Positions 782-16,567 of a stretch of DNA of 16,567 bases are shown in pieces. The notes under the pieces are model-generated. The model had not been told where the DNA came from and did no database searches. It saw only the letters and a program-made list of their open reading frames with translations. The first letter of the stretch is position 1. Every line of letters begins with the position of its first letter. The position numbers and the translations under genes are program-made. The stretch comes from Naegleria gruberi (Eukaryota). The stretch is taken from assembly GCA_000004985.1 (NCBI GenBank), contig GG738974.1; one strand, given 5' to 3'.

Positions 782-1165
782 TTATTCTTTGATCAAACTA
801 TTGATTGCCTTCCGAACACTTTCTTTATCCCATCCCCTTGCTTCAAAGAACTTTCTACATACTGTTCTTTGATCAGTTGTGAGTTCTCCTATAGGTTTCT
901 TGAAGTGATGATGTGCTAACAATTCCAAGCACTGTTTTTGAGTCACATTACCAATAAGCATTTTGATAATGTCTGGAGGAATTGAATAAGTTATACCATT
1001 TACGGTAGTGTTGAATGCAAGCCCTGAAAATAGATGAGCAAACCTTTTTGTGAGGTCAGTTAATACCTTTTCACATTGGATAATGGCATTGATGAACTCT
1101 GGAAAAGCTTTGTCCTTATCTATCAAATCAAAGATGTAATCGACATGCTCTGGAACAATCACAAT
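782..1165 (-). CDS. C-terminal 127 codons of a large protein truncated by the assembly gap. Function unknown; a weak resemblance to the hAT-family C-terminal dimerisation region is noted
   Basis: ORF ...PEHVDYIFDLIDKDKAFPEFINAIIQCEKVLTDLTKRFAHLFSGLAFNTT...IPPDIIKMLIG...WDKESVRKAINSLIKE* with a TAA stop at 782-784. The reading frame is open all the way into the N run. Confidence 0.4.
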   Translation of the reverse strand: MVIVPEHVDYIFDLIDKDKAFPEFINAIIQCEKVLTDLTKRFAHLFSGLAFNTTVNGITYSIPPDIIKMLIGNVTQKQCLELLAHHHFKKPIGELTTDQRTVCRKFFEARGWDKESVRKAINSLIKE

Positions 1166-4100
1166 NNNNNNNNNNNNNNNNNNNNNNNNNNNNNNNNNNN
1201 NNNNNNNNNNNNNNNNNNNNNNNNNNNNNNNNNNNNNNNNNNNNNNNNNNNNNNNNNNNNNNNNNNNNNNNNNNNNNNNNNNNNNNNNNNNNNNNNNNNN
1301 NNNNNNNNNNNNNNNNNNNNNNNNNNNNNNNNNNNNNNNNNNNNNNNNNNNNNNNNNNNNNNNNNNNNNNNNNNNNNNNNNNNNNNNNNNNNNNNNNNNN
1401 NNNNNNNNNNNNNNNNNNNNNNNNNNNNNNNNNNNNNNNNNNNNNNNNNNNNNNNNNNNNNNNNNNNNNNNNNNNNNNNNNNNNNNNNNNNNNNNNNNNN
1501 NNNNNNNNNNNNNNNNNNNNNNNNNNNNNNNNNNNNNNNNNNNNNNNNNNNNNNNNNNNNNNNNNNNNNNNNNNNNNNNNNNNNNNNNNNNNNNNNNNNN
1601 NNNNNNNNNNNNNNNNNNNNNNNNNNNNNNNNNNNNNNNNNNNNNNNNNNNNNNNNNNNNNNNNNNNNNNNNNNNNNNNNNNNNNNNNNNNNNNNNNNNN
1701 NNNNNNNNNNNNNNNNNNNNNNNNNNNNNNNNNNNNNNNNNNNNNNNNNNNNNNNNNNNNNNNNNNNNNNNNNNNNNNNNNNNNNNNNNNNNNNNNNNNN
1801 NNNNNNNNNNNNNNNNNNNNNNNNNNNNNNNNNNNNNNNNNNNNNNNNNNNNNNNNNNNNNNNNNNNNNNNNNNNNNNNNNNNNNNNNNNNNNNNNNNNN
1901 NNNNNNNNNNNNNNNNNNNNNNNNNNNNNNNNNNNNNNNNNNNNNNNNNNNNNNNNNNNNNNNNNNNNNNNNNNNNNNNNNNNNNNNNNNNNNNNNNNNN
2001 NNNNNNNNNNNNNNNNNNNNNNNNNNNNNNNNNNNNNNNNNNNNNNNNNNNNNNNNNNNNNNNNNNNNNNNNNNNNNNNNNNNNNNNNNNNNNNNNNNNN
2101 NNNNNNNNNNNNNNNNNNNNNNNNNNNNNNNNNNNNNNNNNNNNNNNNNNNNNNNNNNNNNNNNNNNNNNNNNNNNNNNNNNNNNNNNNNNNNNNNNNNN
2201 NNNNNNNNNNNNNNNNNNNNNNNNNNNNNNNNNNNNNNNNNNNNNNNNNNNNNNNNNNNNNNNNNNNNNNNNNNNNNNNNNNNNNNNNNNNNNNNNNNNN
2301 NNNNNNNNNNNNNNNNNNNNNNNNNNNNNNNNNNNNNNNNNNNNNNNNNNNNNNNNNNNNNNNNNNNNNNNNNNNNNNNNNNNNNNNNNNNNNNNNNNNN
2401 NNNNNNNNNNNNNNNNNNNNNNNNNNNNNNNNNNNNNNNNNNNNNNNNNNNNNNNNNNNNNNNNNNNNNNNNNNNNNNNNNNNNNNNNNNNNNNNNNNNN
2501 NNNNNNNNNNNNNNNNNNNNNNNNNNNNNNNNNNNNNNNNNNNNNNNNNNNNNNNNNNNNNNNNNNNNNNNNNNNNNNNNNNNNNNNNNNNNNNNNNNNN
2601 NNNNNNNNNNNNNNNNNNNNNNNNNNNNNNNNNNNNNNNNNNNNNNNNNNNNNNNNNNNNNNNNNNNNNNNNNNNNNNNNNNNNNNNNNNNNNNNNNNNN
2701 NNNNNNNNNNNNNNNNNNNNNNNNNNNNNNNNNNNNNNNNNNNNNNNNNNNNNNNNNNNNNNNNNNNNNNNNNNNNNNNNNNNNNNNNNNNNNNNNNNNN
2801 NNNNNNNNNNNNNNNNNNNNNNNNNNNNNNNNNNNNNNNNNNNNNNNNNNNNNNNNNNNNNNNNNNNNNNNNNNNNNNNNNNNNNNNNNNNNNNNNNNNN
2901 NNNNNNNNNNNNNNNNNNNNNNNNNNNNNNNNNNNNNNNNNNNNNNNNNNNNNNNNNNNNNNNNNNNNNNNNNNNNNNNNNNNNNNNNNNNNNNNNNNNN
3001 NNNNNNNNNNNNNNNNNNNNNNNNNNNNNNNNNNNNNNNNNNNNNNNNNNNNNNNNNNNNNNNNNNNNNNNNNNNNNNNNNNNNNNNNNNNNNNNNNNNN
3101 NNNNNNNNNNNNNNNNNNNNNNNNNNNNNNNNNNNNNNNNNNNNNNNNNNNNNNNNNNNNNNNNNNNNNNNNNNNNNNNNNNNNNNNNNNNNNNNNNNNN
3201 NNNNNNNNNNNNNNNNNNNNNNNNNNNNNNNNNNNNNNNNNNNNNNNNNNNNNNNNNNNNNNNNNNNNNNNNNNNNNNNNNNNNNNNNNNNNNNNNNNNN
3301 NNNNNNNNNNNNNNNNNNNNNNNNNNNNNNNNNNNNNNNNNNNNNNNNNNNNNNNNNNNNNNNNNNNNNNNNNNNNNNNNNNNNNNNNNNNNNNNNNNNN
3401 NNNNNNNNNNNNNNNNNNNNNNNNNNNNNNNNNNNNNNNNNNNNNNNNNNNNNNNNNNNNNNNNNNNNNNNNNNNNNNNNNNNNNNNNNNNNNNNNNNNN
3501 NNNNNNNNNNNNNNNNNNNNNNNNNNNNNNNNNNNNNNNNNNNNNNNNNNNNNNNNNNNNNNNNNNNNNNNNNNNNNNNNNNNNNNNNNNNNNNNNNNNN
3601 NNNNNNNNNNNNNNNNNNNNNNNNNNNNNNNNNNNNNNNNNNNNNNNNNNNNNNNNNNNNNNNNNNNNNNNNNNNNNNNNNNNNNNNNNNNNNNNNNNNN
3701 NNNNNNNNNNNNNNNNNNNNNNNNNNNNNNNNNNNNNNNNNNNNNNNNNNNNNNNNNNNNNNNNNNNNNNNNNNNNNNNNNNNNNNNNNNNNNNNNNNNN
3801 NNNNNNNNNNNNNNNNNNNNNNNNNNNNNNNNNNNNNNNNNNNNNNNNNNNNNNNNNNNNNNNNNNNNNNNNNNNNNNNNNNNNNNNNNNNNNNNNNNNN
3901 NNNNNNNNNNNNNNNNNNNNNNNNNNNNNNNNNNNNNNNNNNNNNNNNNNNNNNNNNNNNNNNNNNNNNNNNNNNNNNNNNNNNNNNNNNNNNNNNNNNN
4001 NNNNNNNNNNNNNNNNNNNNNNNNNNNNNNNNNNNNNNNNNNNNNNNNNNNNNNNNNNNNNNNNNNNNNNNNNNNNNNNNNNNNNNNNNNNNNNNNNNNN

Positions 4101-5706
4101 NNNNNNNNNNNNNNNNNNNNNNNNNNNNNNNNNNNNNNNNNNNNNNNNNNNNNNNNNNNNNNNNNNNNNNNNNNNNNNNNNNNNNNNNNNNNNNNNNNNN
4201 NNNNNNNNNNNNNNNNNNNNNNNNNNNNNNNNNNNNNNNNNNNNNNNNNNNNNNNNNNNNNNNNNNNNNNNNNNNNNNNNNNNNNNNNNNNNNNNNNNNN
4301 NNNNNNNNNNNNNNNNNNNNNNNNNNNNNNNNNNNNNNNNNNNNNNNNNNNNNNNNNNNNNNNNNNNNNNNNNNNNNNNNNNNNNNNNNNNNNNNNNNNN
4401 NNNNNNNNNNNNNNNNNNNNNNNNNNNNNNNNNNNNNNNNNNNNNNNNNNNNNNNNNNNNNNNNNNNNNNNNNNNNNNNNNNNNNNNNNNNNNNNNNNNN
4501 NNNNNNNNNNNNNNNNNNNNNNNNNNNNNNNNNNNNNNNNNNNNNNNNNNNNNNNNNNNNNNNNNNNNNNNNNNNNNNNNNNNNNNNNNNNNNNNNNNNN
4601 NNNNNNNNNNNNNNNNNNNNNNNNNNNNNNNNNNNNNNNNNNNNNNNNNNNNNNNNNNNNNNNNNNNNNNNNNNNNNNNNNNNNNNNNNNNNNNNNNNNN
4701 NNNNNNNNNNNNNNNNNNNNNNNNNNNNNNNNNNNNNNNNNNNNNNNNNNNNNNNNNNNNNNNNNNNNNNNNNNNNNNNNNNNNNNNNNNNNNNNNNNNN
4801 NNNNNNNNNNNNNNNNNNNNNNNNNNNNNNNNNNNNNNNNNNNNNNNNNNNNNNNNNNNNNNNNNNNNNNNNNNNNNNNNNNNNNNNNNNNNNNNNNNNN
4901 NNNNNNNNNNNNNNNNNNNNNNNNNNNNNNNNNNNNNNNNNNNNNNNNNNNNNNNNNNNNNNNNNNNNNNNNNNNNNNNNNNNNNNNNNNNNNNNNNNNN
5001 NNNNNNNNNNNNNNNNNNNNNNNNNNNNNNNNNNNNNNNNNNNNNNNNNNNNNNNNNNNNNNNNNNNNNNNNNNNNNNNNNNNNNNNNNNNNNNNNNNNN
5101 NNNNNNNNNNNNNNNNNNNNNNNNNNNNNNNNNNNNNNNNNNNNNNNNNNNNNNNNNNNNNNNNNNNNNNNNNNNNNNNNNNNNNNNNNNNNNNNNNNNN
5201 NNNNNNNNNNNNNNNNNNNNNNNNNNNNNNNNNNNNNNNNNNNNNNNNNNNNNNNNNNNNNNNNNNNNNNNNNNNNNNNNNNNNNNNNNNNNNNNNNNNN
5301 NNNNNNNNNNNNNNNNNNNNNNNNNNNNNNNNNNNNNNNNNNNNNNNNNNNNNNNNNNNNNNNNNNNNNNNNNNNNNNNNNNNNNNNNNNNNNNNNNNNN
5401 NNNNNNNNNNNNNNNNNNNNNNNNNNNNNNNNNNNNNNNNNNNNNNNNNNNNNNNNNNNNNNNNNNNNNNNNNNNNNNNNNNNNNNNNNNNNNNNNNNNN
5501 NNNNNNNNNNNNNNNNNNNNNNNNNNNNNNNNNNNNNNNNNNNNNNNNNNNNNNNNNNNNNNNNNNNNNNNNNNNNNNNNNNNNNNNNNNNNNNNNNNNN
5601 NNNNNNNNNNNNNNNNNNNNNNNNNNNNNNNNNNNNNNNNNNNNNNNNNNNNNNNNNNNNNNNNNNNNNNNNNNNNNNNNNNNNNNNNNNNNNNNNNNNN
5701 NNNNNN
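1166..5706. other. Assembly gap (4541 N)
   Basis: N run in the sequence. Confidence 1.
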
Positions 5707-5719
5707 TCTGCACCCTTTT

Positions 5720-6517
5720 TCAACTTTCAGAGTTAATTTCTTGCAACTTTTCTATCTGCTCTTGAAGTAATTCCTTCACCTTCACAGGAACTGATTCAAG
5801 GTCATTTTTGCCAAATAGCTGTGTTTTAATGGTACGTACTGTTCTGTTAATAGCATCAATATTGCTAACTGCAATTCGCATATCAGGATCATTTGTTATT
5901 GACTTTCGTTTTCTAAATTTTCTTCCCGTGATACTAGGATCACTTTTTACTGCCTCAACCATTTTTTCCTTCATCTTCTTAGGTTGGGTACTTGTACGTA
6001 AATGACAATGTTCATGATCACCATTGAAACCAAAAATATAATTGGTAACTTTGTTGCCATCAACAACTTGTTCTTCTGACTTATAACAATATACCTTTGA
6101 GCTACAATCAATAATTTTAGACAACATATTATTACAAACATTGCAAACCCTATGCTTGTTTGTAAAGTGAGGAAATGATTTGGCAAATGGATCGTTTGTT
6201 TTTATGGTACTAAGGTTGGAGCTTACATTTTCAGAACAAACTTCACACTTTTTAAATCCTTGACAAGAACCCATACGATATTGATTGTATACAACACCAT
6301 TGATTGTTACTGAAAATGGTTTTAATTTTTGGAAACCATTAAAATGGGTTCCAAAATTCAAGTCTTCTCTTAAAGATGGGACCGTTCCTGATAGACAAGT
6401 TACATGATAAAACATCTTGTCCTCTGGCATTCTGTTAATAAACTTAATGTCTTCAACTGTTGTAACGTTGTCCTTATTTGCAAACAACCATTGCCCTGGG
6501 GAGAATCTTGGAGCCAT
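5720..6517 (-). CDS. Hypothetical 265-aa Cys/His-rich protein with a C2H2/BED-like zinc-finger motif (CEVCSENV...HFTNKH) and further CxxC and HxHCH clusters
   Basis: ATG-initiated ORF MAPRFSPGQW..., far longer than any antisense ORF over the same region. It shares the CxVCxENV motif with the neighbouring 6963-7730 gene. Confidence 0.5.
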   Translation of the reverse strand: MAPRFSPGQWLFANKDNVTTVEDIKFINRMPEDKMFYHVTCLSGTVPSLREDLNFGTHFNGFQKLKPFSVTINGVVYNQYRMGSCQGFKKCEVCSENVSSNLSTIKTNDPFAKSFPHFTNKHRVCNVCNNMLSKIIDCSSKVYCYKSEEQVVDGNKVTNYIFGFNGDHEHCHLRTSTQPKKMKEKMVEAVKSDPSITGRKFRKRKSITNDPDMRIAVSNIDAINRTVRTIKTQLFGKNDLESVPVKVKELLQEQIEKLQEINSES

Positions 6518-6700
6518 TTTTTTTGTGCAGAAATTGATAAAATAAGGCGGGAAAAAAATCTTTTGTAAACAATCAGTTTAAGGTTTGCAAAAAAAACTTA
6601 ACATTTAGACGGGGATCGAACTTGCTCCAATACCATGTGTTGCACAATGTCTGTCACCTGAACTACCAATGATTACACATTTAGGTGAATTTTTATTGCA

Positions 6701-6830
6701 TAGTTGGATGGTTGAAATTAAGATAATTAAGGTCAAAAGATTCGCGCGAGGATTGTTGTGAGTTCGATCAAGCTCGCGTGGTTCACAAGTTTTCACTCGA
6801 GGTTTGACAGCTACCCGTGTCGATATCCTC
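6701..6830 (-). repeat. Copy 2 of the ~150-bp dispersed repeat, inverted relative to copy 1
   Basis: The reverse complement of 6738-6800 aligns to 211-275 at about 90% identity. It has the same cacgcgag...ctcgcgtg hairpin and a B-box-like GAGTTCGATC. Confidence 0.6.
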
Positions 6831-6962
6831 GTACTTCCTAGGTGTCCTATTGCGATGATTCATTGGTTTTATTATACGATGTTATAATATTGAGATTGAT
6901 TTTGTAGAGAATGATTAGTTAGATTTAGAACAGAAAATGTTGTAAAGCATTAGTAGTTTAGT

Positions 6963-7730
6963 TTAATGATTGTTTGCAGGCCTGTATGCAATCTTTCCTC
7001 GCATTAGTGGACGTTTCTCCTCAACCAAATATTTGGAGAATGAAACACAATGACCTTGTTTTACATGATGTTCAAAATCATTGTCACTAATTACTTCATA
7101 AACATTTTCTTTACAAACAGCACAAAACGAAACTCCTTTCGAAACATGTCTAAAAGCAGTAGACTTCTTCAATGGACATTCATATTCCCAATCACAATTC
7201 TCAATAAATTGTCTGTCCTTATTCTTTCTAAATTTTGATCCTAAAGGTCCAGATTCTTCTTTAATTATTTTCGAAAGTGGTAATTCTTGTGGAAATTTGT
7301 TTTGTAAATGGATGACTCTCCTTCTCATGACATGCATCCAATTCTTGACATTTAAACTTGCCGAATAATTTGGAAAGTAATAAAGTACAAGTGGTTTCCA
7401 CAAAAGTGTCTGAGCAAGTGCAGTTTCGTTTTCTTTATACTGATCTTTGACCGATACAATCCTACTTTCAAGGTCAAGTTGCAACAATTCTTGTTTTCTC
7501 TTTGCAATGGCCTCCACTTTTTCAACAGTCAAATCAAAAATCATTTCCAATAAATATTCATCACTTCTCGCAAAAGAATTCAAATCTCCAATTGGTAAAT
7601 ATTGTGCAATTATTAAAATTAATTCCGTGCTGAGAGTTTCTTTAAAGATGTTGTGTTTTGTGGAGGGAAGAGAGGACAAGTCATCATCGGCTTCATTATT
7701 CGAAACTCGAGAGAAGATCTTTTTGAACAT
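6963..7730 (-). CDS. Hypothetical 255-aa protein with an F-box-like N-terminal segment (LSTELILIIAQYLPIGDLNSFARSDEYL) and a C-terminal C2H2/BED-like zinc finger (CAVCKENV x10 HHVKQGH)
   Basis: ATG-initiated ORF MFKKIFSRVS... It shares CxVCxENV and F.H....HxC spacing with the 5720-6517 protein. It is divergently oriented to the 8022 gene. Confidence 0.5.
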   Translation of the reverse strand: MFKKIFSRVSNNEADDDLSSLPSTKHNIFKETLSTELILIIAQYLPIGDLNSFARSDEYLLEMIFDLTVEKVEAIAKRKQELLQLDLESRIVSVKDQYKENETALAQTLLWKPLVLYYFPNYSASLNVKNWMHVMRRRVIHLQNKFPQELPLSKIIKEESGPLGSKFRKNKDRQFIENCDWEYECPLKKSTAFRHVSKGVSFCAVCKENVYEVISDNDFEHHVKQGHCVSFSKYLVEEKRPLMRGKIAYRPANNH

Positions 7731-7983
7731 TTTTTTAGTTGGAGATGTTTGTATGACTAGTGTTTGTCTTCAGCCATTTCATTGTTCACAACAAGTTCGC
7801 GAAAGAAAAAGGAAGAAGTTCATGAGCTCGATACAGTCTATGAAGGAAAGAATATAATTAAGGACAATGAAAGAGTTCATCACTACCTTGGTAAACATCT
7901 ATTGAAAAGACTCCTCTAAACTTACAGTTTGTTATCAGCACACAAGTATCATTCCCCTTGTTAGCTTATTTCAAATAATTAAA

Positions 7984-8021
7984 TTTTCAAAAAAATTAAG
8001 TCCACACCCAACATACTCAAA
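7984..8021 (+). promoter_or_regulatory. Conserved core promoter / 5' leader of paralog A (A-run followed by CCAACATACTCAAA and the ATG)
   Basis: About 80% identical to 15117-15153, which sits immediately upstream of the paralog B ATG. Conservation stops further upstream. Confidence 0.45.
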
Positions 8022-9509
8022 ATGTATTTGTGTGGTCGTTTGCCAGTTATTAGTGATTTCTTTGAGGCGTGTTTTGCTGAAGGAACAAAAACATCTTCCC
8101 AAGATAGTGGGTCCCAATTTTTCAACACTGAAGAAGGTNNNNNNNNNNNNNNNNNNNNNNNNNNNNNNNNNNNNNNNNNNNNNNNNNNTCTATTAGAAAG
8201 AATGGATTCCGTAAAAGTTTCTTTTGAGAATTTTGAGAGAACATCTGCTCTCATGGTTTTACTTGCATTTAACTATATTGATAAACCATCCCTTGATCAA
8301 GTTGAACAATGCATTGAACATTGTGACTTGATACTCTATAACTCAGAAAAGCTAGAACCGAGTGATCTTACTTGCATGGCCATGATTCTCTTTAATATCT
8401 ATAAGAAACAACCTTGTTTAGAATTGCTTGGAGATGCTTTCATACTTTCCAGCTTTGCAAATGTAGTTGATCCTCTGGGAGCTGAAACTCTCATGTTACA
8501 GATAGGAAATTCATTCATTGTAAAATTCAAACAGACATTTTCTCCACTGTTATCCCAACTTGTAGAGTTTCTTTCTAGAAGGATATCAACTTCAAATTTG
8601 GGGTCATTGTTGTTCTCTTCTGACACTTTTTGTGAAATACTGTATAGTAATATTACAAGAAACCTAAGACCAGATATTATTCCTTCATCTTCTTTCAAGT
8701 TTGGTGAAGATTTAAAATGTGTATCACGAAAAGAGTTCAAATCACAAAATTTCCTTGAGGATTTATTACGAATTGGAAACTCTAACGACTCAAACCAGCA
8801 GATGTTAAGTTTGTACAAAACCATCAACAGTACATTCCTTTCAATTGATTCTTTCCAAACCAAAGCTCACAAACTGGCATTAGTTTGTCAACTTGTTGTC
8901 AAGAATAAGTTAGAAATGGATAGAAATGAGTTGTTGAATGCTTTGTTAGTCTGTATTCATAATTTCCATCTTGTTTTTGAAACACAGTCCTTTTCACACA
9001 TTTCCCACTCTTCAGAATCGATGCCTGTTAGTGGAAGCAATACTCTCTGCTTCGATTTGTATTACTTTTCTGTTTTTCAATTTTACAACTTGTTGACAGA
9101 CCTCACTACTCTCAAATATCCTGCAGCTGAGAATTGTTTCTATTTCAAAAATATCAACAATAGATTCTTACAGTTTTTATGGAAGAAAGTTATTGAGAAC
9201 TTACAACTTCTTCAAAACAAGATTAGTGCAAGGCAGCAACCCAAAGATTTTAAAGATCACTATTTAACATCTATTCTGTCATCATCTTTTGAGGACACAC
9301 ATAAACACCAGTTGGAGGAGATTAAATCAAATATTGAACAGATTATGATCCTAGCAGAAGAAAATCAAAGGACAATTGATCTTCAAATAGAGAAGGCCAA
9401 GGACAGATTAAACCATTTGAATCAATCGAATCTTACTTCTCAAGAGATTCGAATCATTAAAAGCTTTGGTACAGAAATGCAATCTTTAACTGGGATTGAA
9501 TATGAGTAA
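8022..9509 (+). CDS. Paralog A of an unrecognised conserved protein family (495 aa as assembled; interrupted by the 50-N gap at 8139-8188)
   Basis: ATG-to-TAA ORF. About 88% aa identity to the 15154+ ORF over ~380 aligned residues, with synonymous differences present. Confidence 0.7.
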   Translation: MYLCGRLPVISDFFEACFAEGTKTSSQDSGSQFFNTEEGXXXXXXXXXXXXXXXXXLLERMDSVKVSFENFERTSALMVLLAFNYIDKPSLDQVEQCIEHCDLILYNSEKLEPSDLTCMAMILFNIYKKQPCLELLGDAFILSSFANVVDPLGAETLMLQIGNSFIVKFKQTFSPLLSQLVEFLSRRISTSNLGSLLFSSDTFCEILYSNITRNLRPDIIPSSSFKFGEDLKCVSRKEFKSQNFLEDLLRIGNSNDSNQQMLSLYKTINSTFLSIDSFQTKAHKLALVCQLVVKNKLEMDRNELLNALLVCIHNFHLVFETQSFSHISHSSESMPVSGSNTLCFDLYYFSVFQFYNLLTDLTTLKYPAAENCFYFKNINNRFLQFLWKKVIENLQLLQNKISARQQPKDFKDHYLTSILSSSFEDTHKHQLEEIKSNIEQIMILAEENQRTIDLQIEKAKDRLNHLNQSNLTSQEIRIIKSFGTEMQSLTGIEYE

Positions 9510-9842
9510 CTGGATTTCTTGAAATAGTTCTATTAACAGTTTTTTCCCTGATACAAAACAAGAAATTAATACAATCGTGTAATATTTCATTGTGAATCCC
9601 CTAGGTTTATTTTATATTCTTCATCAAAGCAATTTTTCAACATTCATTTTACTGTTGTTCATGTAAGGAATTAAGGAAAAAATGCCCCCACGCATCAAGG
9701 AATCAATCTTCACGCCAAAATATTTCACAAGTTAGGAATGATTATTACACATAAATGGGTGTTCATTCAATTCAAGGGATTTCAATAGATGTATGGAATC
9801 AGTCAGGTAACTTTCTAATTTGATACTTTACATTTGGGGAAG

Positions 9843-11747
9843 NNNNNNNNNNNNNNNNNNNNNNNNNNNNNNNNNNNNNNNNNNNNNNNNNNNNNNNNNN
9901 NNNNNNNNNNNNNNNNNNNNNNNNNNNNNNNNNNNNNNNNNNNNNNNNNNNNNNNNNNNNNNNNNNNNNNNNNNNNNNNNNNNNNNNNNNNNNNNNNNNN
10001 NNNNNNNNNNNNNNNNNNNNNNNNNNNNNNNNNNNNNNNNNNNNNNNNNNNNNNNNNNNNNNNNNNNNNNNNNNNNNNNNNNNNNNNNNNNNNNNNNNNN
10101 NNNNNNNNNNNNNNNNNNNNNNNNNNNNNNNNNNNNNNNNNNNNNNNNNNNNNNNNNNNNNNNNNNNNNNNNNNNNNNNNNNNNNNNNNNNNNNNNNNNN
10201 NNNNNNNNNNNNNNNNNNNNNNNNNNNNNNNNNNNNNNNNNNNNNNNNNNNNNNNNNNNNNNNNNNNNNNNNNNNNNNNNNNNNNNNNNNNNNNNNNNNN
10301 NNNNNNNNNNNNNNNNNNNNNNNNNNNNNNNNNNNNNNNNNNNNNNNNNNNNNNNNNNNNNNNNNNNNNNNNNNNNNNNNNNNNNNNNNNNNNNNNNNNN
10401 NNNNNNNNNNNNNNNNNNNNNNNNNNNNNNNNNNNNNNNNNNNNNNNNNNNNNNNNNNNNNNNNNNNNNNNNNNNNNNNNNNNNNNNNNNNNNNNNNNNN
10501 NNNNNNNNNNNNNNNNNNNNNNNNNNNNNNNNNNNNNNNNNNNNNNNNNNNNNNNNNNNNNNNNNNNNNNNNNNNNNNNNNNNNNNNNNNNNNNNNNNNN
10601 NNNNNNNNNNNNNNNNNNNNNNNNNNNNNNNNNNNNNNNNNNNNNNNNNNNNNNNNNNNNNNNNNNNNNNNNNNNNNNNNNNNNNNNNNNNNNNNNNNNN
10701 NNNNNNNNNNNNNNNNNNNNNNNNNNNNNNNNNNNNNNNNNNNNNNNNNNNNNNNNNNNNNNNNNNNNNNNNNNNNNNNNNNNNNNNNNNNNNNNNNNNN
10801 NNNNNNNNNNNNNNNNNNNNNNNNNNNNNNNNNNNNNNNNNNNNNNNNNNNNNNNNNNNNNNNNNNNNNNNNNNNNNNNNNNNNNNNNNNNNNNNNNNNN
10901 NNNNNNNNNNNNNNNNNNNNNNNNNNNNNNNNNNNNNNNNNNNNNNNNNNNNNNNNNNNNNNNNNNNNNNNNNNNNNNNNNNNNNNNNNNNNNNNNNNNN
11001 NNNNNNNNNNNNNNNNNNNNNNNNNNNNNNNNNNNNNNNNNNNNNNNNNNNNNNNNNNNNNNNNNNNNNNNNNNNNNNNNNNNNNNNNNNNNNNNNNNNN
11101 NNNNNNNNNNNNNNNNNNNNNNNNNNNNNNNNNNNNNNNNNNNNNNNNNNNNNNNNNNNNNNNNNNNNNNNNNNNNNNNNNNNNNNNNNNNNNNNNNNNN
11201 NNNNNNNNNNNNNNNNNNNNNNNNNNNNNNNNNNNNNNNNNNNNNNNNNNNNNNNNNNNNNNNNNNNNNNNNNNNNNNNNNNNNNNNNNNNNNNNNNNNN
11301 NNNNNNNNNNNNNNNNNNNNNNNNNNNNNNNNNNNNNNNNNNNNNNNNNNNNNNNNNNNNNNNNNNNNNNNNNNNNNNNNNNNNNNNNNNNNNNNNNNNN
11401 NNNNNNNNNNNNNNNNNNNNNNNNNNNNNNNNNNNNNNNNNNNNNNNNNNNNNNNNNNNNNNNNNNNNNNNNNNNNNNNNNNNNNNNNNNNNNNNNNNNN
11501 NNNNNNNNNNNNNNNNNNNNNNNNNNNNNNNNNNNNNNNNNNNNNNNNNNNNNNNNNNNNNNNNNNNNNNNNNNNNNNNNNNNNNNNNNNNNNNNNNNNN
11601 NNNNNNNNNNNNNNNNNNNNNNNNNNNNNNNNNNNNNNNNNNNNNNNNNNNNNNNNNNNNNNNNNNNNNNNNNNNNNNNNNNNNNNNNNNNNNNNNNNNN
11701 NNNNNNNNNNNNNNNNNNNNNNNNNNNNNNNNNNNNNNNNNNNNNNN
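9843..11747. other. Assembly gap (1905 N), probably hiding the 5' part of the retroelement (gag / ITR)
   Basis: N run in the sequence. Confidence 1.
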
Positions 11748-11769
11748 TATGCTGAGTCCAATGTAATAG

Positions 11770-12945
11770 AGATGGAAACAGTCAACAATATTGAACCCAA
11801 TAAACATTGTACCCAAGAAGGGTTCGGATCAATTTCGCTTTATTCTAGACCTAAGGAAGGTCAATTTAGGAATAAAGGACAGTTCCTTCAAGATGGACAA
11901 CATTCAAAGATGTTTGAAATTTGTTCAGAAGGGAATGTGGGCAACAAAGATAGACCTGAAGAAGGGTTACTTCCACGTTCCAATCAGGGAGAAACATCGC
12001 AATCTTCTTGGATTCCGGTACAAGGACAAGATTTATCAGTTCAAATGCCTACCGTTTGGGCTAAGTCAAGCTCCCAGAAATTTCACAAAGATTATGAAAG
12101 AGTTGGTGACCAAGTGGAGAAAGCAGGGTATTCTAGTATTTATTTACATAGACGATATTTTGATTCTAAACAACAGCAAAGAAACTACCCAACTGCTCAC
12201 AGACATAGTCATGAAGGATCTGGAGACATTGGGATGGATAATCCAGAAAGAGAAAAGCGTATTAGCACCGTGTCAACACATAGAGTTTCTCGGTCTGGAA
12301 CTGGATCTCGTACTTGGCCTTGTGAAAATCCCAGTCAACAAACAATCAACAGCCTTAGAAATGATTCAAAAATTCTTATCAGCAAACCAACGGAACAGGT
12401 TTGTAGCATGCAAGAAAGTAGCACAATTCCTCGGAAGGATGGAATTTCTAACTCTTTCAAACCACTACTTTGCTCCCTTTCTTGCTCGTCTTCGGAAGGA
12501 TATGGTGAAAGTAGTAAACGACAAATCTTGGCACGCATCAATGAGAATATTCAGAGGTGCAGCAAAGGATCTAAATATTTTGAAAGATCTGATTCAGGAA
12601 AACAGTGGAATTCCCTTCGAACTGAATTCAATGAACCCAATTCGAGTGAATTCAGATGCCTGCCCAACAGGCTATGGAATTCACGCAGAGTCAACCATTA
12701 CAATTGGAAGATTCACTTCCTCAGAACACATCAATGTGAAAGAGTTAAAAACACTCCTCATTTTCTTCACACAAGCAGATCTGTTAAACCTTTATGGTCC
12801 TGGACAAGCATTCGAAATCAGAGGCGACAATGTTACGGCAATTTCCTATATAAGGAGAGGTTACGGAGTCATAGAAGAACTCTTGTTTCTTAAAAGAAAA
12901 CCAACAATAAATAAACTAATGGATATTGTCCCGAGAAAGGAGTAG
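11770..12945 (+). CDS. Reverse transcriptase-RNase H polyprotein segment (apparently intact, ~390 codons) of a DIRS-like retroelement
   Basis: A continuous frame runs from just after the in-frame TAA/TAG at 11764-11769 to the stop at 12945. YIDD lies at 12145-12156. There is an RNase H DAS..G.G motif. The track starts this ORF at a TTG (11791). Confidence 0.8.
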   Translation, partial: RWKQSTILNPINIVPKKGSDQFRFILDLRKVNLGIKDSSFKMDNIQRCLKFVQKGMWATKIDLKKGYFHVPIREKHRNLLGFRYKDKIYQFKCLPFGLSQAPRNFTKIMKELVTKWRKQGILVFIYIDDILILNNSKETTQLLTDIVMKDLETLGWIIQKEKSVLAPCQHIEFLGLELDLVLGLVKIPVNKQSTALEMIQKFLSANQRNRFVACKKVAQFLGRMEFLTLSNHYFAPFLARLRKDMVKVVNDKSWHASMRIFRGAAKDLNILKDLIQENSGIPFELNSMNPIRVNSDACPTGYGIHAESTITIGRFTSSEHINVKELKTLLIFFTQADLLNLYGPGQAFEIRGDNVTAISYIRRGYGVIEELLFLKRKPTINKLMDIVPRKE

Positions 12946-13400
12946 TAGACAAGTGGCGAGCGGCAAGAGCTTCTTGTCTTTGATAAGGTTGTAAAGATTT
13001 CACATCCTTATGTCTAGTCCCTATAATAATATCCTGAGTAGGAATTCCCTTGATAATACTCTCAGTAGTTGCACCAATACGTAAACTGTGACCAGAAACA
13101 GTGATTTCTGAATCAACAAAGATCATAGCATTCTTGATAAGTTGAGAAACATCGTCAGTGTTGAAGAAAATATTGTCTTGCAATGAAAACAATGGTGAAT
13201 CTGCTGTTTTGAAATGCTGTAGTGTCCTTGTAATCAAAAAGCAATTTCACTGGATACACTGAAGGATTTTCAAGATGCTTGTCAAAAGTAATCGGCTTTT
13301 CTAGTAGAAATCTGTTTTGTGACCACTGAGATCTAATTTGATGTTACCATTTCTAAGCTTAGTAACATAACCCCACTTGAGAGTAAGAGGAATCTCGGTA
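12946..13400 (-). pseudogene. Tyrosine recombinase (phage-integrase/DIRS type) C-terminal catalytic domain, frameshifted
   Basis: The minus ORF 12890-13237 contains GHSLRIGATTESIIKGIPTQDIIIGTRHKDVKSLQPY (the HxxR...Y box II with catalytic Tyr). Upstream, in another frame, are LTLKWGYV (box I-like) and SGHKTDFY (KT lysine region), followed by a stop. Confidence 0.6.
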
Positions 13401-14061
13401 TTCATTTATTTAGACGATATCTTAGTGGTAAATCATTCAAAAGATCAGTTGATCTTAGACAGAGATATAGTTCTAAAGGATAGAAGAGTTTGGATTTCTC
13501 ATTCAAAAAGACAAATGTTGTTTAAATCCAACTCAATTATTAGAATACCTAGGAGTTTTGTTAGACTTTCATCAAGGTTTGGTAAAAATTCCAGAAGACA
13601 AAAAGATTACAACCTTAGAATTCATAGAGGAGCTACTCAATGCTTCCCAGAAACCGCTTTATGTTCCATGCAAGAGAGTTGCCAAGTTCCTAGGAAATTT
13701 GGAATTTCTAACAATTGCCAACAAGTACCTTTCACCATTCATGTGTCGTCTTCGAAAGAACATGATTTCAGCAGTATCAGGAAGAAGTTGGCATGCATCG
13801 ATGAAAATTCACAAAGGTGCATTCAAGGATTTATTGATTCTAAGGGAGTTAATTCAAAAGAACAATGGTAATTCCAGAATGGAGCTCCTCGATTTGGTGG
13901 CCTCTACTCTTAAAGCTATTAAAGAAGAGAAAAAGTATCACAAGAAGGATGCTTTTAATCAAACCAATATCCGAATTATGGAACAAATTCGAAGGAACGA
14001 CGTTCATAATTGCTCATCTGGATGGAAACTTATACTTCAAACCAGAGATTTAGGATGTTAG
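13380..14061 (+). pseudogene. 5'-truncated, frameshifted second RT(-RH) copy, about 55% aa identity to the first
   Basis: GISVFIYLDDILVVNHSKDQ (YLDD at 13407-13418), then ...DIVLKDRRVWISHSKRQML. A frame switch near 13540-13560 continues as LVKIPEDKKITTLEFIEELL...SWHASMKIHKGAFKDL, collinear with RT1. The RNase H motifs are degenerate. Confidence 0.7.
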
Positions 14062-14305
14062 TTTCGATTAAGGAAGAAACCTTCAAACTTTACACTAGAA
14101 ACTATAATGGTTTATTACTGCATTCAATATTTCAATGGATGACCCTTATGCTATTGAGTATTATGCAGCTTATCTTACAATTCAAGGTCAAACATCTCGT
14201 GTTGAAGCCTTGAGACCATCCCTTCAATTTTGGGCCATGTTACTCAATTTCAATGGGAAGTAGTGTAAATGGAGTTAGAAAGTCATTTTGAAAACAGGTT
14301 TATTT

Positions 14306-15037
14306 TTACTTTCCCAGTAATTCATGCACACATCCCCAAAAAGTTGCTGATTCTTCCATGGAAAATTTCAAGTATTGCATACTAAGTTGTTGTTTTTCGA
14401 TTTCAGAAATGGTGAGCACTTGCTTTTCAATCTTTTTTTGAATGGATTTATAATGGAATCCAATTGTTTTTTCTTTAACCATAACAGAAGCTCCAGATTG
14501 TACTTTGGCATCAGCATCACGTTGTTGAACAATTCTGTTGTTGGTGTTATTTACACTAGAAATAATTTGATTTCTCTCATCGGAAGTAATTTCCCTTACA
14601 TAACAAATACACTTTGTTGTTCCGTTCTTGTCTTGAAATTCCAAGGTAAACTGCTCACTATTATTTGTTCGGCATATTTTTCTATTATATGTATTCACAC
14701 TTCCACTGGGCTCAGTGTTGGTTGGAATTTTATAAACCTCACTGCAGCCGCCAAATGAAGTCTCAAATATGTAATAATATTCGCCACTAACCACATAAAA
14801 CATTGCATGGTTGATAGAAGTGTTGTTGTTTGCCGGTTTGATGGATGGACAAACAAAGCCTGATGGAAAAAACTTCTTCAAATACAAACAAAAGCCTAAA
14901 CAATTACATCCAATAGAGGTGGGCTCGTATCCATCCACATATAAATTAGTGTTAAGTGTGTTATTGTATGGAAATTTCACCAAGAGTTCCTTATGTTTTT
15001 GATTAAAACGGTCCCTAGCGATATCCTCTGGATCCAT
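14306..15037 (-). CDS. Hypothetical 243-aa Cys- and Asn-rich protein
   Basis: The track ORF (14306-15052) begins at a TTG. The first ATG is at 15035-15037 (MDPEDIARDRF...). This ORF is longer than the antisense ORF. It is divergent from paralog B, with 116 bp between the two ATGs. Confidence 0.45.
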   Translation of the reverse strand: MDPEDIARDRFNQKHKELLVKFPYNNTLNTNLYVDGYEPTSIGCNCLGFCLYLKKFFPSGFVCPSIKPANNNTSINHAMFYVVSGEYYYIFETSFGGCSEVYKIPTNTEPSGSVNTYNRKICRTNNSEQFTLEFQDKNGTTKCICYVREITSDERNQIISSVNNTNNRIVQQRDADAKVQSGASVMVKEKTIGFHYKSIQKKIEKQVLTISEIEKQQLSMQYLKFSMEESATFWGCVHELLGK

Positions 15038-15116
15038 TGCTGTCCGGAACAATAATATTATTTACAGATTTTTTTTGTATTTTTTGCCTTCAATAAATTC
15101 AATATTTCATGTTGTA

Positions 15117-15153
15117 AAATTCAAAAAAAAATTACATCCATCCAACATTCAAA
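15117..15153 (+). promoter_or_regulatory. Conserved core promoter / 5' leader of paralog B
   Basis: aaaattcaaaaaaaaattacatccatccaacattcaaa immediately before the ATG, matching 7984-8021. Confidence 0.45.
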
Positions 15154-16567
15154 ATGGAATTATATGATAGTTCGCCAGATATTAATCCCTTTGATGCCTA
15201 CTTTGCGGTAACAAAAACACCTGCTGAAGATACTGGGGCCCAATTTTTGCAGCACATGAAGAAGGTTTATAGTGATGGATTTGTTAATGGATTTGTTAAT
15301 GGCTACAACTACAGGCAATCATCCGAACCAAAGGATCACAACATATTCCATAGCCACACTAACTATGTTTTGAATCAATCTCTTTCTGTGGTTATCAAGG
15401 CCCAGAGGATACCACAAGCTGGTATTATCACCAAGATATTTTCTCAAGAGCTCCAATCATTTTTCCCGGTTCTGTCCAGTCTTGCCAAATTGATTGAATC
15501 AAACTCACTTGGCAATTATGTAGCATCTTCTGAAGAGCAGGCAATTCTATGCTCACTTGCTGAATGCCTACTCTCAACTGAAATATCAAAACGGGATGCA
15601 ACAGCCATAAAACCAACAAACCTATTAGAAAGAATGAATGCTGTAAAAGTTTCTTTTGAGAATTTTGAGAGAAAATCTGCTCTTATGGTTTTACTTGCAT
15701 TTAACTATATTGATAAACCATCTCTTGATCAAGTTGAACAATGCATTGAACATTGTGACTTGATGCTCTATAACTCAGACAAGCTAGAACCAAGTGATCT
15801 TACTTGCATGGCCATGATCCTCTTTAATATTTATAAGAAACAACCTTGTTTAGAATTGCTTGGAGATGCTTTCATACTTTCCAGCTTTGCAAATGTGGTT
15901 GATCCTGTAGGTGCGGAGACTCTTATGGTGCAGATAGGAAATGCATTCATTGTAAACTTCAAACAGACATTTTCTCCACTGTTATCCCAGGTTGCAGAGT
16001 TTCTTTCTCGTAGAATATCTACTTCAAATTTGGGCTCACTGTTGTTCTCGTCTGACACCTTTTGTGAAATACTGTACAGTAATATTATCAGAAACTTAAG
16101 ACCAGAAATTATTCCATCATCTACTTACAAGTTTGGTGAAGATTTAAAATGTCTGTCACGAAAAGAGTTCAAATCGCAATATTTCCTTGAAGATTTATTA
16201 CGAATTGAGAGCTCTAAAGACTCAAACGAGCAGATGTTGAGCTTGTATAAAACAATCAACAATACGTACCTTTCAAATGATTCATCCCAAACCAAAGCTC
16301 ACAAACTGGCATTAGTTTGTCAACTGGTTGTCAAAAATAAGTTAGATATGGATAGAAATGAGTTTTTGAATGCTCTGTTGGTCTGTATTCATAATTTCCA
16401 TCTAGTTTTTGAAACAGAGCTGATTTCACACGTTTCTCGCTCTTCAGAATCGATGTCTGTTAGTGGAAGCAACACTGTCTGCTTCGATCTGTATTACTTT
16501 TCTGTTTTTCAATTACACGAGTTATTGACTGACCACTCTAATCTCAAATATCCTGCAGCTGAGAATG
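15154..16567 (+). CDS. Paralog B of the same unrecognised family, 3'-truncated by the window end
   Basis: ATG at 15154; the ORF is open to the end of the window. It contains ~110 residues (YSDGFVNGFVNG...KPTN) that in paralog A fall inside the 50-N gap. Confidence 0.7.
   Translation, partial: MELYDSSPDINPFDAYFAVTKTPAEDTGAQFLQHMKKVYSDGFVNGFVNGYNYRQSSEPKDHNIFHSHTNYVLNQSLSVVIKAQRIPQAGIITKIFSQELQSFFPVLSSLAKLIESNSLGNYVASSEEQAILCSLAECLLSTEISKRDATAIKPTNLLERMNAVKVSFENFERKSALMVLLAFNYIDKPSLDQVEQCIEHCDLMLYNSDKLEPSDLTCMAMILFNIYKKQPCLELLGDAFILSSFANVVDPVGAETLMVQIGNAFIVNFKQTFSPLLSQVAEFLSRRISTSNLGSLLFSSDTFCEILYSNIIRNLRPEIIPSSTYKFGEDLKCLSRKEFKSQYFLEDLLRIESSKDSNEQMLSLYKTINNTYLSNDSSQTKAHKLALVCQLVVKNKLDMDRNEFLNALLVCIHNFHLVFETELISHVSRSSESMSVSGSNTVCFDLYYFSVFQLHELLTDHSNLKYPAAEN
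15277..15300 (+). repeat. Perfect 12-bp tandem duplication (ggatttgttaat x2) inside paralog B, encoding GFVN-GFVN
   Basis: Read directly from the sequence. Confidence 0.8.

Follow-up and report, generated by a model that had tools for sequence, protein, structure and literature searches.

[quoted passage not shown] This long ORF overlap is found in about half of the described DIRS1-like elements (PMC3266345) and is not usual in Ngaro or VIPER (PMC3266345). According to the published DIRS model, reverse transcription of the RNA yields a circular DNA that is integrated by the YR, in many cases into an older copy, and DIRS-1 prefers existing copies of itself as insertion target (PMC5633606). A YR that is natively inverted has been described for kangaroo of Volvox carteri and for a PAT element of Daphnia pulex (PMC4157794; PMC3266345), and inverted YR domains arose more than once in the PAT group (PMC4157794). 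For Naegleria gruberi, Piednoel et al. 2011 listed seven DIRS1-like sequences in six families (PMC3266345), with too many frameshifts or indels in the copies for phylogenetic analysis (PMC3266345).

The stretch of DNA analyzed here (the window) is a whole small N. gruberi scaffold of 16.6 kb, in which an RT ORF on the plus strand and a YR C-terminus on the minus strand converge. An earlier note on this DNA had proposed either an unusual element architecture or the nested insertion of a 5'-truncated second element in inverted orientation, on the premise that described DIRS, Ngaro and PAT elements all carry the YR on the strand of the RT, a premise contradicted by kangaroo and the Daphnia PAT element (PMC4157794; PMC3266345). 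We are almost certain that dead DIRS1-like fragments meet at this locus and that it does not represent a native architecture. The fragments, mapped by tblastn with five reference elements, are listed below with their directly observed identities, positions and truncation points:

11748-12893, plus strand: stop-free second frame of copy A, +2 relative to pol, ending with a TAA (12891-12893) at the breakpoint
11772-11781, plus strand: 2-nt frameshift in copy A pol, near the gap edge, from comparison with P0005 and direct reading
11785-12897, plus strand: copy A, a DIRS1-like pol fragment, residues 97-464 of the 635-aa P0001
12898-12925, no strand: junction 1, about 28 bp that match neither pol nor YR nor an element terminus
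12926-13381, minus strand: fragment S, the YR C-terminal catalytic half, residues 149-302 of 306
13380-13869, plus strand: copy B RT fragment, residues 208-368 (tblastn E 2e-42)
13856-14041, plus strand: copy B pol end, last 62 residues (574-635), from tblastn with L002, L003, L004 and L005
14061-14242, plus strand: copy B YR N-terminus, residues 8-71 (tblastn E 8e-7)

The ORF that contains copy A (11791-12945, plus strand, 384 aa) was correctly recognized in the earlier note as an RT ORF with a YIDD motif: it matches Pfam RVT_1 with 88 bits (E 9e-25), the RT is full, and YIDD lies at 12145-12156. Copy A is 56% identical to P0001, a DIRS-like pol, and in tblastn searches with four relatives its pol homology stops at 12897-12900, so that the fragment is cut inside the RNase H, at residue 464 of about 635, and ends before the methyltransferase (MT) domain. 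The RNase H directly follows the RT, and its catalytic D, E and D motifs (12649-12663, 12733-12747 and 12820-12834) are present, but the invariant aspartate of N..AD..SR (D492 of P0001) falls beyond the break and the domain is incomplete. The best PDB matches are to Ty3 RT (4ol8, 7q5b). A single-sequence PDB search with the RNase H/MT region returned nothing and a profile search was needed; a profile of 32 relatives matched CaMV and Ty3 with E values of 1e-42 to 1e-49 and aligned through the RNase H of both.

The second frame of copy A contains no stop codon, whereas 1000 synonymous-codon shuffles led to an expectation of 21.7 and never gave fewer than 12; the host genes of the window have 27-43 stops in the equivalent frame. 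We rejected the idea that this frame is a novelty, as it corresponds to the published "long ORF overlap" of DIRS1-like elements (PMC3266345), and it is a remnant of such a pol/YR overlap. Around the frameshift, SNVIE is read in the other frame (11757-11771) and STILNPINIV from 11782. Downstream of this point, P0005, an RT fragment from an environmental sample, is 91% identical to copy A. As both frames are intact over 1.1 kb and such a closely similar environmental fragment exists, the A family has been active recently. A metagenome scan with copy A for the YR of this family yielded only a near-duplicate of L002 and two distant matches.

In all seven relatives with context (L001-L005, L007, L008), gag, pol and YR are located on one strand. 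In the relatives with calls for both genes (L002-L004, L007, L008), the pol stop overlaps the YR start by 4 nt. An intact element of this clade has a length of about 4 kb and encodes gag, pol (RT, RNase H and a Dam-like MT) and YR, the last at the end of a frame of about 900 codons that overlaps all of pol (L002, ORF 1258-3981, 907 aa; L003, ORF 1004-3721, 905 aa). The frame that is open in copy A is open in L002-L005 too, where it ends in the YR domain and has no stops versus 29-37 expected (22-37 for the five elements including copy A). The pol of L002 matches Pfam Dam with 23.6 bits (E 5e-5), which is below the cut-off of 28.1 bits, and many of the relatives have a precomputed PF05869 match. 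In the N. fowleri relative (L001), candidate arms of 28 nt, 75% complementary, were detected at 6440-6467 and 10642-10669.

Given these Dam-like matches and the pol-wide ORF overlap of the relatives, we rejected Ngaro elements, which have neither an MT nor long overlaps. Cryptons, in which the YR has no link to an RT, were likewise rejected, since the YR relatives of fragment S with sufficient flank (L002, L003, L007, L008) are each encoded directly downstream of the pol of their own element. We consider the window fragments as probably DIRS1-like, the distinction between DIRS1-like and PAT-like being drawn from the relatives and the cited survey. They differ from described DIRS1-like elements in that, every fragment being truncated, the window shows no inverted terminal repeats or internal complementary regions.

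Fragment S was delimited by tblastn with residues 149-302 of the L002 recombinase, which aligned from 13381 down to 12926 (E 3e-34); in BLASTP, S and this recombinase are 43% identical (E 1e-39). Its catalytic motifs comprise K (HKTD, 13321-13310), HxxR (HSLR, 13090-13079), H (TRHKD, 13018-13004) and Y (PYQR, 12988-12977), which bears out the YR C-terminus with a catalytic box that had been noticed on the minus strand. As in DIRS1-like elements, a YR stands in the place of a DDE integrase, and neither a DDE integrase nor a protease was seen, in agreement with the earlier note. S is, however, a half-length YR pseudogene: truncation has removed the first 148 residues of the YR, among them the first catalytic arginine (Arg-I), and the remainder is disrupted by two in-frame stops (13301-13303, 13247-13249) and a single 5-residue indel. 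When the ORF pieces were checked against profiles, as the earlier note had advised, the RT piece was recognized by RVT_1, but S alone, with 14.7 bits, fell short of the cut-off of Pfam Phage_integrase, which the L002 recombinase itself passes with 39.9 bits.

These data bear on whether the locus could be a genuine kangaroo-like variant with its YR natively on the strand opposite pol. Two coding regions do converge in the window, inverted YRs have originated repeatedly in the PAT group (PMC4157794), and in kangaroo and the Daphnia pulex PAT element the YR is likewise opposite in strand to RT, RNase H and MT. However, those are complete multicopy elements in which split direct repeats are present and a full-length YR follows an intact MT, whereas here a YR pseudogene that retains residues 149-302 only, with two stops and no Arg-I, is fused to an RNase H truncated at pol residue 464, with no MT domain. 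Split direct repeats (A1-B1-A2-B2) were not found in the window, nor were other terminal or split repeats, and inverted repeats of at least 25 nt were absent from window positions 5707-16567. Moreover, copy A retains the frame that leads to a same-strand YR, and the close relatives, as well as copy B, all have the YR on the strand of pol. A kangaroo-like variant is therefore close to refuted, and with it the unusual architecture that had been suggested.

The third ORF piece (13377-14061) does not belong to the gene of copy A but represents a second, divergent copy of pol. Copy B has a YLDD motif at 13407-13418, a frameshift at about 13491 and an internal deletion of 205 residues (369-573) that removed the RNase H and most of the MT-like domain. 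Copies A and B are 54% identical in amino acid sequence and 68% identical in nucleotide sequence over 209 nt; as they differ by 46% at the amino acid level, they belong to separate families. A protein search with the copy B pol for a closer relative gave no match at E <= 1e-5. In copy B, pol ends at 14041 and the YR begins at 14061 on the same strand, colinear with pol and in the canonical order; its YR homology ends at about 14242, and an unrelated minus-strand ORF (14306-15052) lies beyond. A same-strand YR downstream of RT and RNase H, which the earlier note had named as the observation that would reduce this locus to a nested or rearranged insertion, was thus observed in seven of seven relatives and in copy B. 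RT, MT and YR are co-oriented in all of these, but not at the junction of copy A and S, which is a breakpoint. Copy A, with both frames open, is young, and copy B, with its frameshift and internal deletion, is old.

The ORFs of copy A and S overlap by 56 bp (12890-12945), in line with the approximately 55 bp noted before, but the homologous parts do not: pol homology ends at 12897 and YR homology at about 12926-12931, as read from the ends of the tblastn and blastn matches. Both ORF tails read through junction 1, and since the two homologies end short of each other, the overlap is a read-through of two truncated fragments. At junction 2, S and copy B abut to the base (13380/13381). No nucleotide similarity of S to either copy A or copy B was found. 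An element terminus is absent from all three fragments. A nested or rearranged insertion, the other option proposed earlier, is therefore right in spirit, but a clean nested 5'-truncated insertion is not what the locus contains. We rejected a LINE-style insertion of this kind: there are no termini, a 5' truncation is a LINE-type outcome, and DIRS-type integration, being the recombination of a circle, would not yield one.

The parentage of S can be addressed through L006, an environmental YR pseudogene that is colinear and lies on a short contig with no readable flank. Positions 1-87 of L006 are 80% identical in nucleotide sequence to the YR start of copy B (plus strand), and S (minus strand) matches L006 with 71.6% nucleotide identity over 405 nt. 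In amino acid sequence, S is 58% identical to L006 and 47% identical to L002, a modest margin. A search with S returned four matches only, the best 68% identical and none of them from the sample of P0005. Because L006 matches both the YR start of copy B and S, S probably represents the YR tail of copy B itself, turned round by an inversion. The YR coverage of the two is complementary (8-71 in copy B and 149-302 in S, with no overlap), and both are degenerate, as opposed to copy A, which has no stop in either frame. This link between S and copy B depends on a single short environmental contig, L006.

From these relationships we infer the order and nature of the rearrangement events, as well as the descent of S and copy B from one copy. 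First, an internal inversion in an old B-family copy would have brought pol residue 208 up against YR residue 149, at the cost of YR residues 72-148. Second, an insertion of copy A would have landed beside the inverted B-family copy. Third, both the 3' third of A and the 3' end of what was left of B would have been lost in a later deletion. We consider this specific history, inversion in B followed by insertion of A and then deletion, to be probable, although by a modest measure. A model based on inversion still needs extra deletions.

Alternatively, three independent insertions (A on the plus, C on the minus and B on the plus strand), followed by two deletions, may have left the YR tail of C between A and B. 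DIRS-type elements favor existing copies as targets (PMC5633606), and such clusters decay into mixed-orientation fragments with no termini, as seen here; nor is S tied to B with certainty. The locus is similar in this respect to the DIRS-1 clusters of Dictyostelium, in which copies pile into or beside older copies to form fragmented arrays of mixed orientation, although those arrays account for about half of the sequence of the centromeres and here there are two or three fragments only. Three insertions would, however, be one more than inversion within B requires, and would leave to coincidence the base-exact abutment of S and B, their non-overlapping YR coverage and the position of L006 as nearest relative of both S and the YR of B. 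We therefore regard this account as possible but unlikely.

A further origin of S would be copy A itself, its YR having been turned around by an inversion with ends at pol 464/465 and past the YR stop, and the rest having been deleted against B. A single inversion of the 3' third of A would give junction 1, where pol residue 464 and the extreme end of the YR are only about 28 bp apart. Yet S has accumulated two stops and an indel in 152 codons and copy A none, in either frame, in 371 codons; L006 is nearest to S and also to the YR of B; and no match of about 90% to S came from the sample of P0005, which, that catalogue being fragmentary, weighs little. Taken together, we find a derivation of S from copy A clearly improbable.

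Instead of a random genomic inversion, the head-to-head join of the inverted segment (pol residue 208 to YR residue 71) with the sequence from YR residue 149, in which 77 codons are missing, might have been made during replication, by template switching or by cDNA snap-back. The 5'-inversion products of L1, which uses target-primed reverse transcription, arise by "twin priming". Their topology matches that seen here, where an inverted upstream segment (pol 208 to YR 71) abuts the 5' end of the downstream segment, which starts at YR 149, and a short interior stretch (YR 72-148) is gone. In contrast to L1, DIRS-type elements presumably integrate through the recombination of a DNA circle, and the 3' terminus expected of a twin-priming product is missing here. 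We consider such an origin very improbable; if true, inverted and partly deleted derivatives can arise from YR retroelements, and a step of this kind could lie behind lineages with a natively inverted YR, such as kangaroo.

Finally, the junctions at about 12900 and 13380 could in principle be chimeras, made where Sanger reads of separate repeat copies were merged, as the scaffold is small and rich in gaps (three N gaps with 6496 bases, 39% of its length) and repeated sequence occurs in this region (two copies of pol and a host gene that is duplicated). However, both junctions lie within a single gap-free contig (11748-16567), and the fragments are not similar enough in nucleotide sequence to confuse an assembler (A and B, 68% over 209 nt; S, no identity to either), so that we give an assembly artefact very little chance. 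Apart from the duplicated host gene, the only direct repeats in the window are short families of low identity. tRNA and Rfam scans of the window detected no RNA genes, and tblastn with four gag proteins no gag remnants. A gap of 1905 N probably conceals the 5' part of copy A. On this scaffold, the fragments are flanked by ordinary-looking ORFs. For the 255-aa ORF, a paralogue (NAEGRDRAFT_49242) is located on a scaffold of 747 kb.

The locus is a decayed cluster from at least two DIRS1-like families in which nothing is functional; double-stranded RNA from the convergent pair of copy A and S would be its only plausible activity today. It is an ordinary decayed transposon cluster, and degenerate DIRS1-like elements of N. 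gruberi have already been published. A recurrent native inversion would have represented a third independent origin of an inverted YR, and the evidence is against it. The locus carries little weight beyond annotation: it should be masked as DIRS1-like pseudogene fragments of two families, and neither gene models nor a new element type should be derived from it. As a by-product, the analysis shows clearly how elements of the Naegleria-type DIRS1-like clade are built, for use as a reference: gag, pol and YR share one strand, and a stop-free YR frame spans all of pol.

The RT-RNase H ORF and the converging opposite-strand recombinase described in an earlier note are real features, and the cluster they form is an ordinary, already known kind of decayed transposon cluster. 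It sits in gap-free sequence starting at 11748 and comprises a DIRS1-like pol fragment (copy A), a second, degraded copy (copy B) and, between them, the C-terminal half of a tyrosine recombinase, or YR (fragment S).

Features of the cluster and gaps in the scaffold
11791-12945, plus strand: copy A pol ORF (Pfam RVT_1, 88 bits)
13381 down to 12926, minus strand: fragment S, residues 149-302 of the 306-aa recombinase of environmental contig L002 (tblastn E 3e-34; BLASTP E 1e-39)
13380-13869, plus strand: copy B pol residues 208-368 (tblastn; frameshift near 13491)
13856-14041, plus strand: copy B pol residues 574-635 (tblastn)
14061-14242, plus strand: copy B recombinase residues 8-71 (tblastn)
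1166-5706, 8139-8188 and 9843-11747: N gaps

The pol ORF ending at 12945 was confirmed by the RVT_1 match and by 56% identity to residues 97-464 of a 635-aa reference DIRS-like pol (P0001). The profile built from 32 relatives can be aligned with CaMV and Ty3 without a break across RT and RNase H, and its invariant columns include RNase H D384, E413, D441 and D492; copy A retains equivalents of the first three, but its RNase H is cut before D492, which lies past the break. Pol homology ends at 12897 (residue 464), and the final 16 codons of the ORF have no matches. The minus-strand recombinase C-terminus is upheld by homology to the L002 recombinase and by the motifs HKTD, HSLR, H and Y; however, it carries two in-frame stops (13301-13303 and 13247-13249), is without the Arg-I region and the entire N-terminal domain, and alone scores 14.7 bits against Pfam Phage_integrase, not passing, whereas the L002 recombinase passes at 39.9 bits. 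Similarly, the proposed convergent overlap of ~55 bp exists between the ORFs, which share 56 bp (12890-12945), but not between the homologous parts, which are separated by ~28 bp of unassignable sequence. As both homologies are truncated, the convergent arrangement is that of the ends of two truncated pseudogene fragments.

Copy B, mapped by tblastn with five reference elements, runs from the end of pol into the start of the recombinase, both on the plus strand. RNase H is missing from it, as is the greater part of the methyltransferase-like region. Its amino acid identity to copy A is 54%, with a nucleotide alignment limited to 209 nt (68%), and on these sequence comparisons it is assigned to a different family. 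A protein search with copy B pol (E <= 1e-5) gave no closer relative.

The origin of the inverted piece is illuminated by L006, an 856-nt environmental contig with a single colinear degenerate recombinase gene. Its positions 1-87 match 14149-14235 on the plus strand (80% nt), i.e., the YR N-terminus of copy B, while positions 226-629 match 13323-12931 on the minus strand (72% nt), i.e., fragment S. L006 is the closest known relative of both, with modest amino acid margins (58% versus 47% to L002 for fragment S; 66% versus 40% for the YR N-terminus of copy B). Furthermore, the YR coverage of copy B (residues 8-71) and fragment S (149-302) does not overlap, and fragment S ends at 13381 where copy B starts at 13380. 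Fragment S and copy B are both degraded, while copy A is without stops in either frame; that the inverted piece is copy A's own 3' part is accordingly doubtful. Along the minus strand, one first meets the segment in inverted orientation, from YR 71 to pol 208, and then YR 149 onward, precisely the order that one intra-element inversion would give, except for the loss of YR 72-148. Taken together, the L006 link, the non-overlapping YR parts, the abutment, the shared decay and the strand order favor an inversion within a B-family copy over three separate insertions followed by two deletions, which we consider unlikely. A chimeric assembly is highly improbable. In the history that we regard as probable, the first event would be an inversion inside an old B-family copy; arrival of the younger A copy would have come next, and a deletion would have taken the 3' third of A plus the 3' end of the B remnant. 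L006 itself has frameshifts and, by eye against the L002 recombinase, a ~49-residue internal deletion at ~90-225 that takes the Arg-I region; this deletion falls close to the YR breakpoint of the window.

The closest relatives are environmental contigs and one Naegleria fowleri locus (L001), and in every relative with context (L001-L005, L007, L008; the L005 contig stops soon after pol) gag, pol and YR are co-stranded. Wherever both were called (L002-L004, L007, L008), the pol stop and YR ATG overlap by 4 nt. The +2 frame relative to pol in L002-L005, which is the frame of gag and YR, has no stops over ~600 codons, as compared to 29-37 expected from synonymous-codon shuffles; L002 (1258-3981) and L003 (1004-3721) each have an ORF of ~905 aa spanning all of pol, with the YR domain at its end. 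In copy A, the +2 frame relative to pol is open over 11748-12890 (0 stops, 21.7 expected) and closes at 12891-12893, precisely at the breakpoint; the same-position frame in the window's host ORFs contains 27-43 stops. In five elements only 52-56% identical (copy A, L002-L005), 22-37 stops would be expected in this frame and there are none. DIRS1-like elements are already known for this feature, the published 'long ORF overlap' with the catalytic part of YR in the non-overlapping 3' end (PMC3266345); here it extends across all of pol. The retained frame indicates that copy A was made for a recombinase on the same strand. With copy B and all relatives with context also same-strand, the 'unusual architecture' offered in the earlier note is not supported. 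The L001 copy (6440-10669 of VFQX01000017.1, ~4.2 kb, DIRS1-like, with a frameshifted pol) is bounded by candidate 28-nt inverted arms, 75% complementary, and its annotation covers the RT part alone, as a hypothetical protein.

The premise that all described DIRS, Ngaro and PAT elements have a same-strand recombinase does not hold, as an inverted YR is possible in PAT-group elements, namely Volvox kangaroo and a Daphnia element with four full copies (Piednoel et al. 2011, PMC3266345; Szitenberg et al. 2014, PMC4157794). A genuine inverted YR would therefore be no new category. Terminal repeats, which discriminate DIRS1-like from PAT-like elements, were not found in the window.

The window is one entire small scaffold. 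Its 255-aa ORF (6966-7730, minus strand) is identical to N. gruberi XP_002668698.1; a paralogue, NAEGRDRAFT_49242, lies on a 747-kb scaffold and shares 90% identity or more, so the small scaffold may be a duplicated or alternative-haplotype region. Four long intron-free ORFs surround the cluster (5720-6517, 6963-7730, 8022-9509, 14306-15052); none had a Pfam match over cut-off, and tRNA and Rfam scans of the whole window gave no matches. A direct segmental duplication (8190-9134/15622-16566; 945 nt, 90.6% identity) includes part of the 495-aa ORF 8022-9509; the cluster and ORF 14306-15052 lie between its copies, the second of which leaves the scaffold end. An inverted repeat of 91 nt (83.5% identity) was found at 207-297/6716-6805.

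For N. gruberi, Piednoel et al. 2011 (PMC3266345) catalogue seven DIRS1-like sequences in six families, which frameshifts or indels left unsuitable for the phylogenetic analysis of that study. DIRS-1 prefers existing copies of itself as targets (PMC5633606), which accounts for fragment clusters in mixed orientation. An A-family YR was not recovered by searches with fragment S or by a metagenome scan with copy A. An environmental 231-aa RT fragment (P0005, SRR3989338_2525547) is 91% identical to copy A, aligned to 11782-12300, and this, together with the two intact frames of copy A, suggests that the A family was recently active in Naegleria or a close relative.
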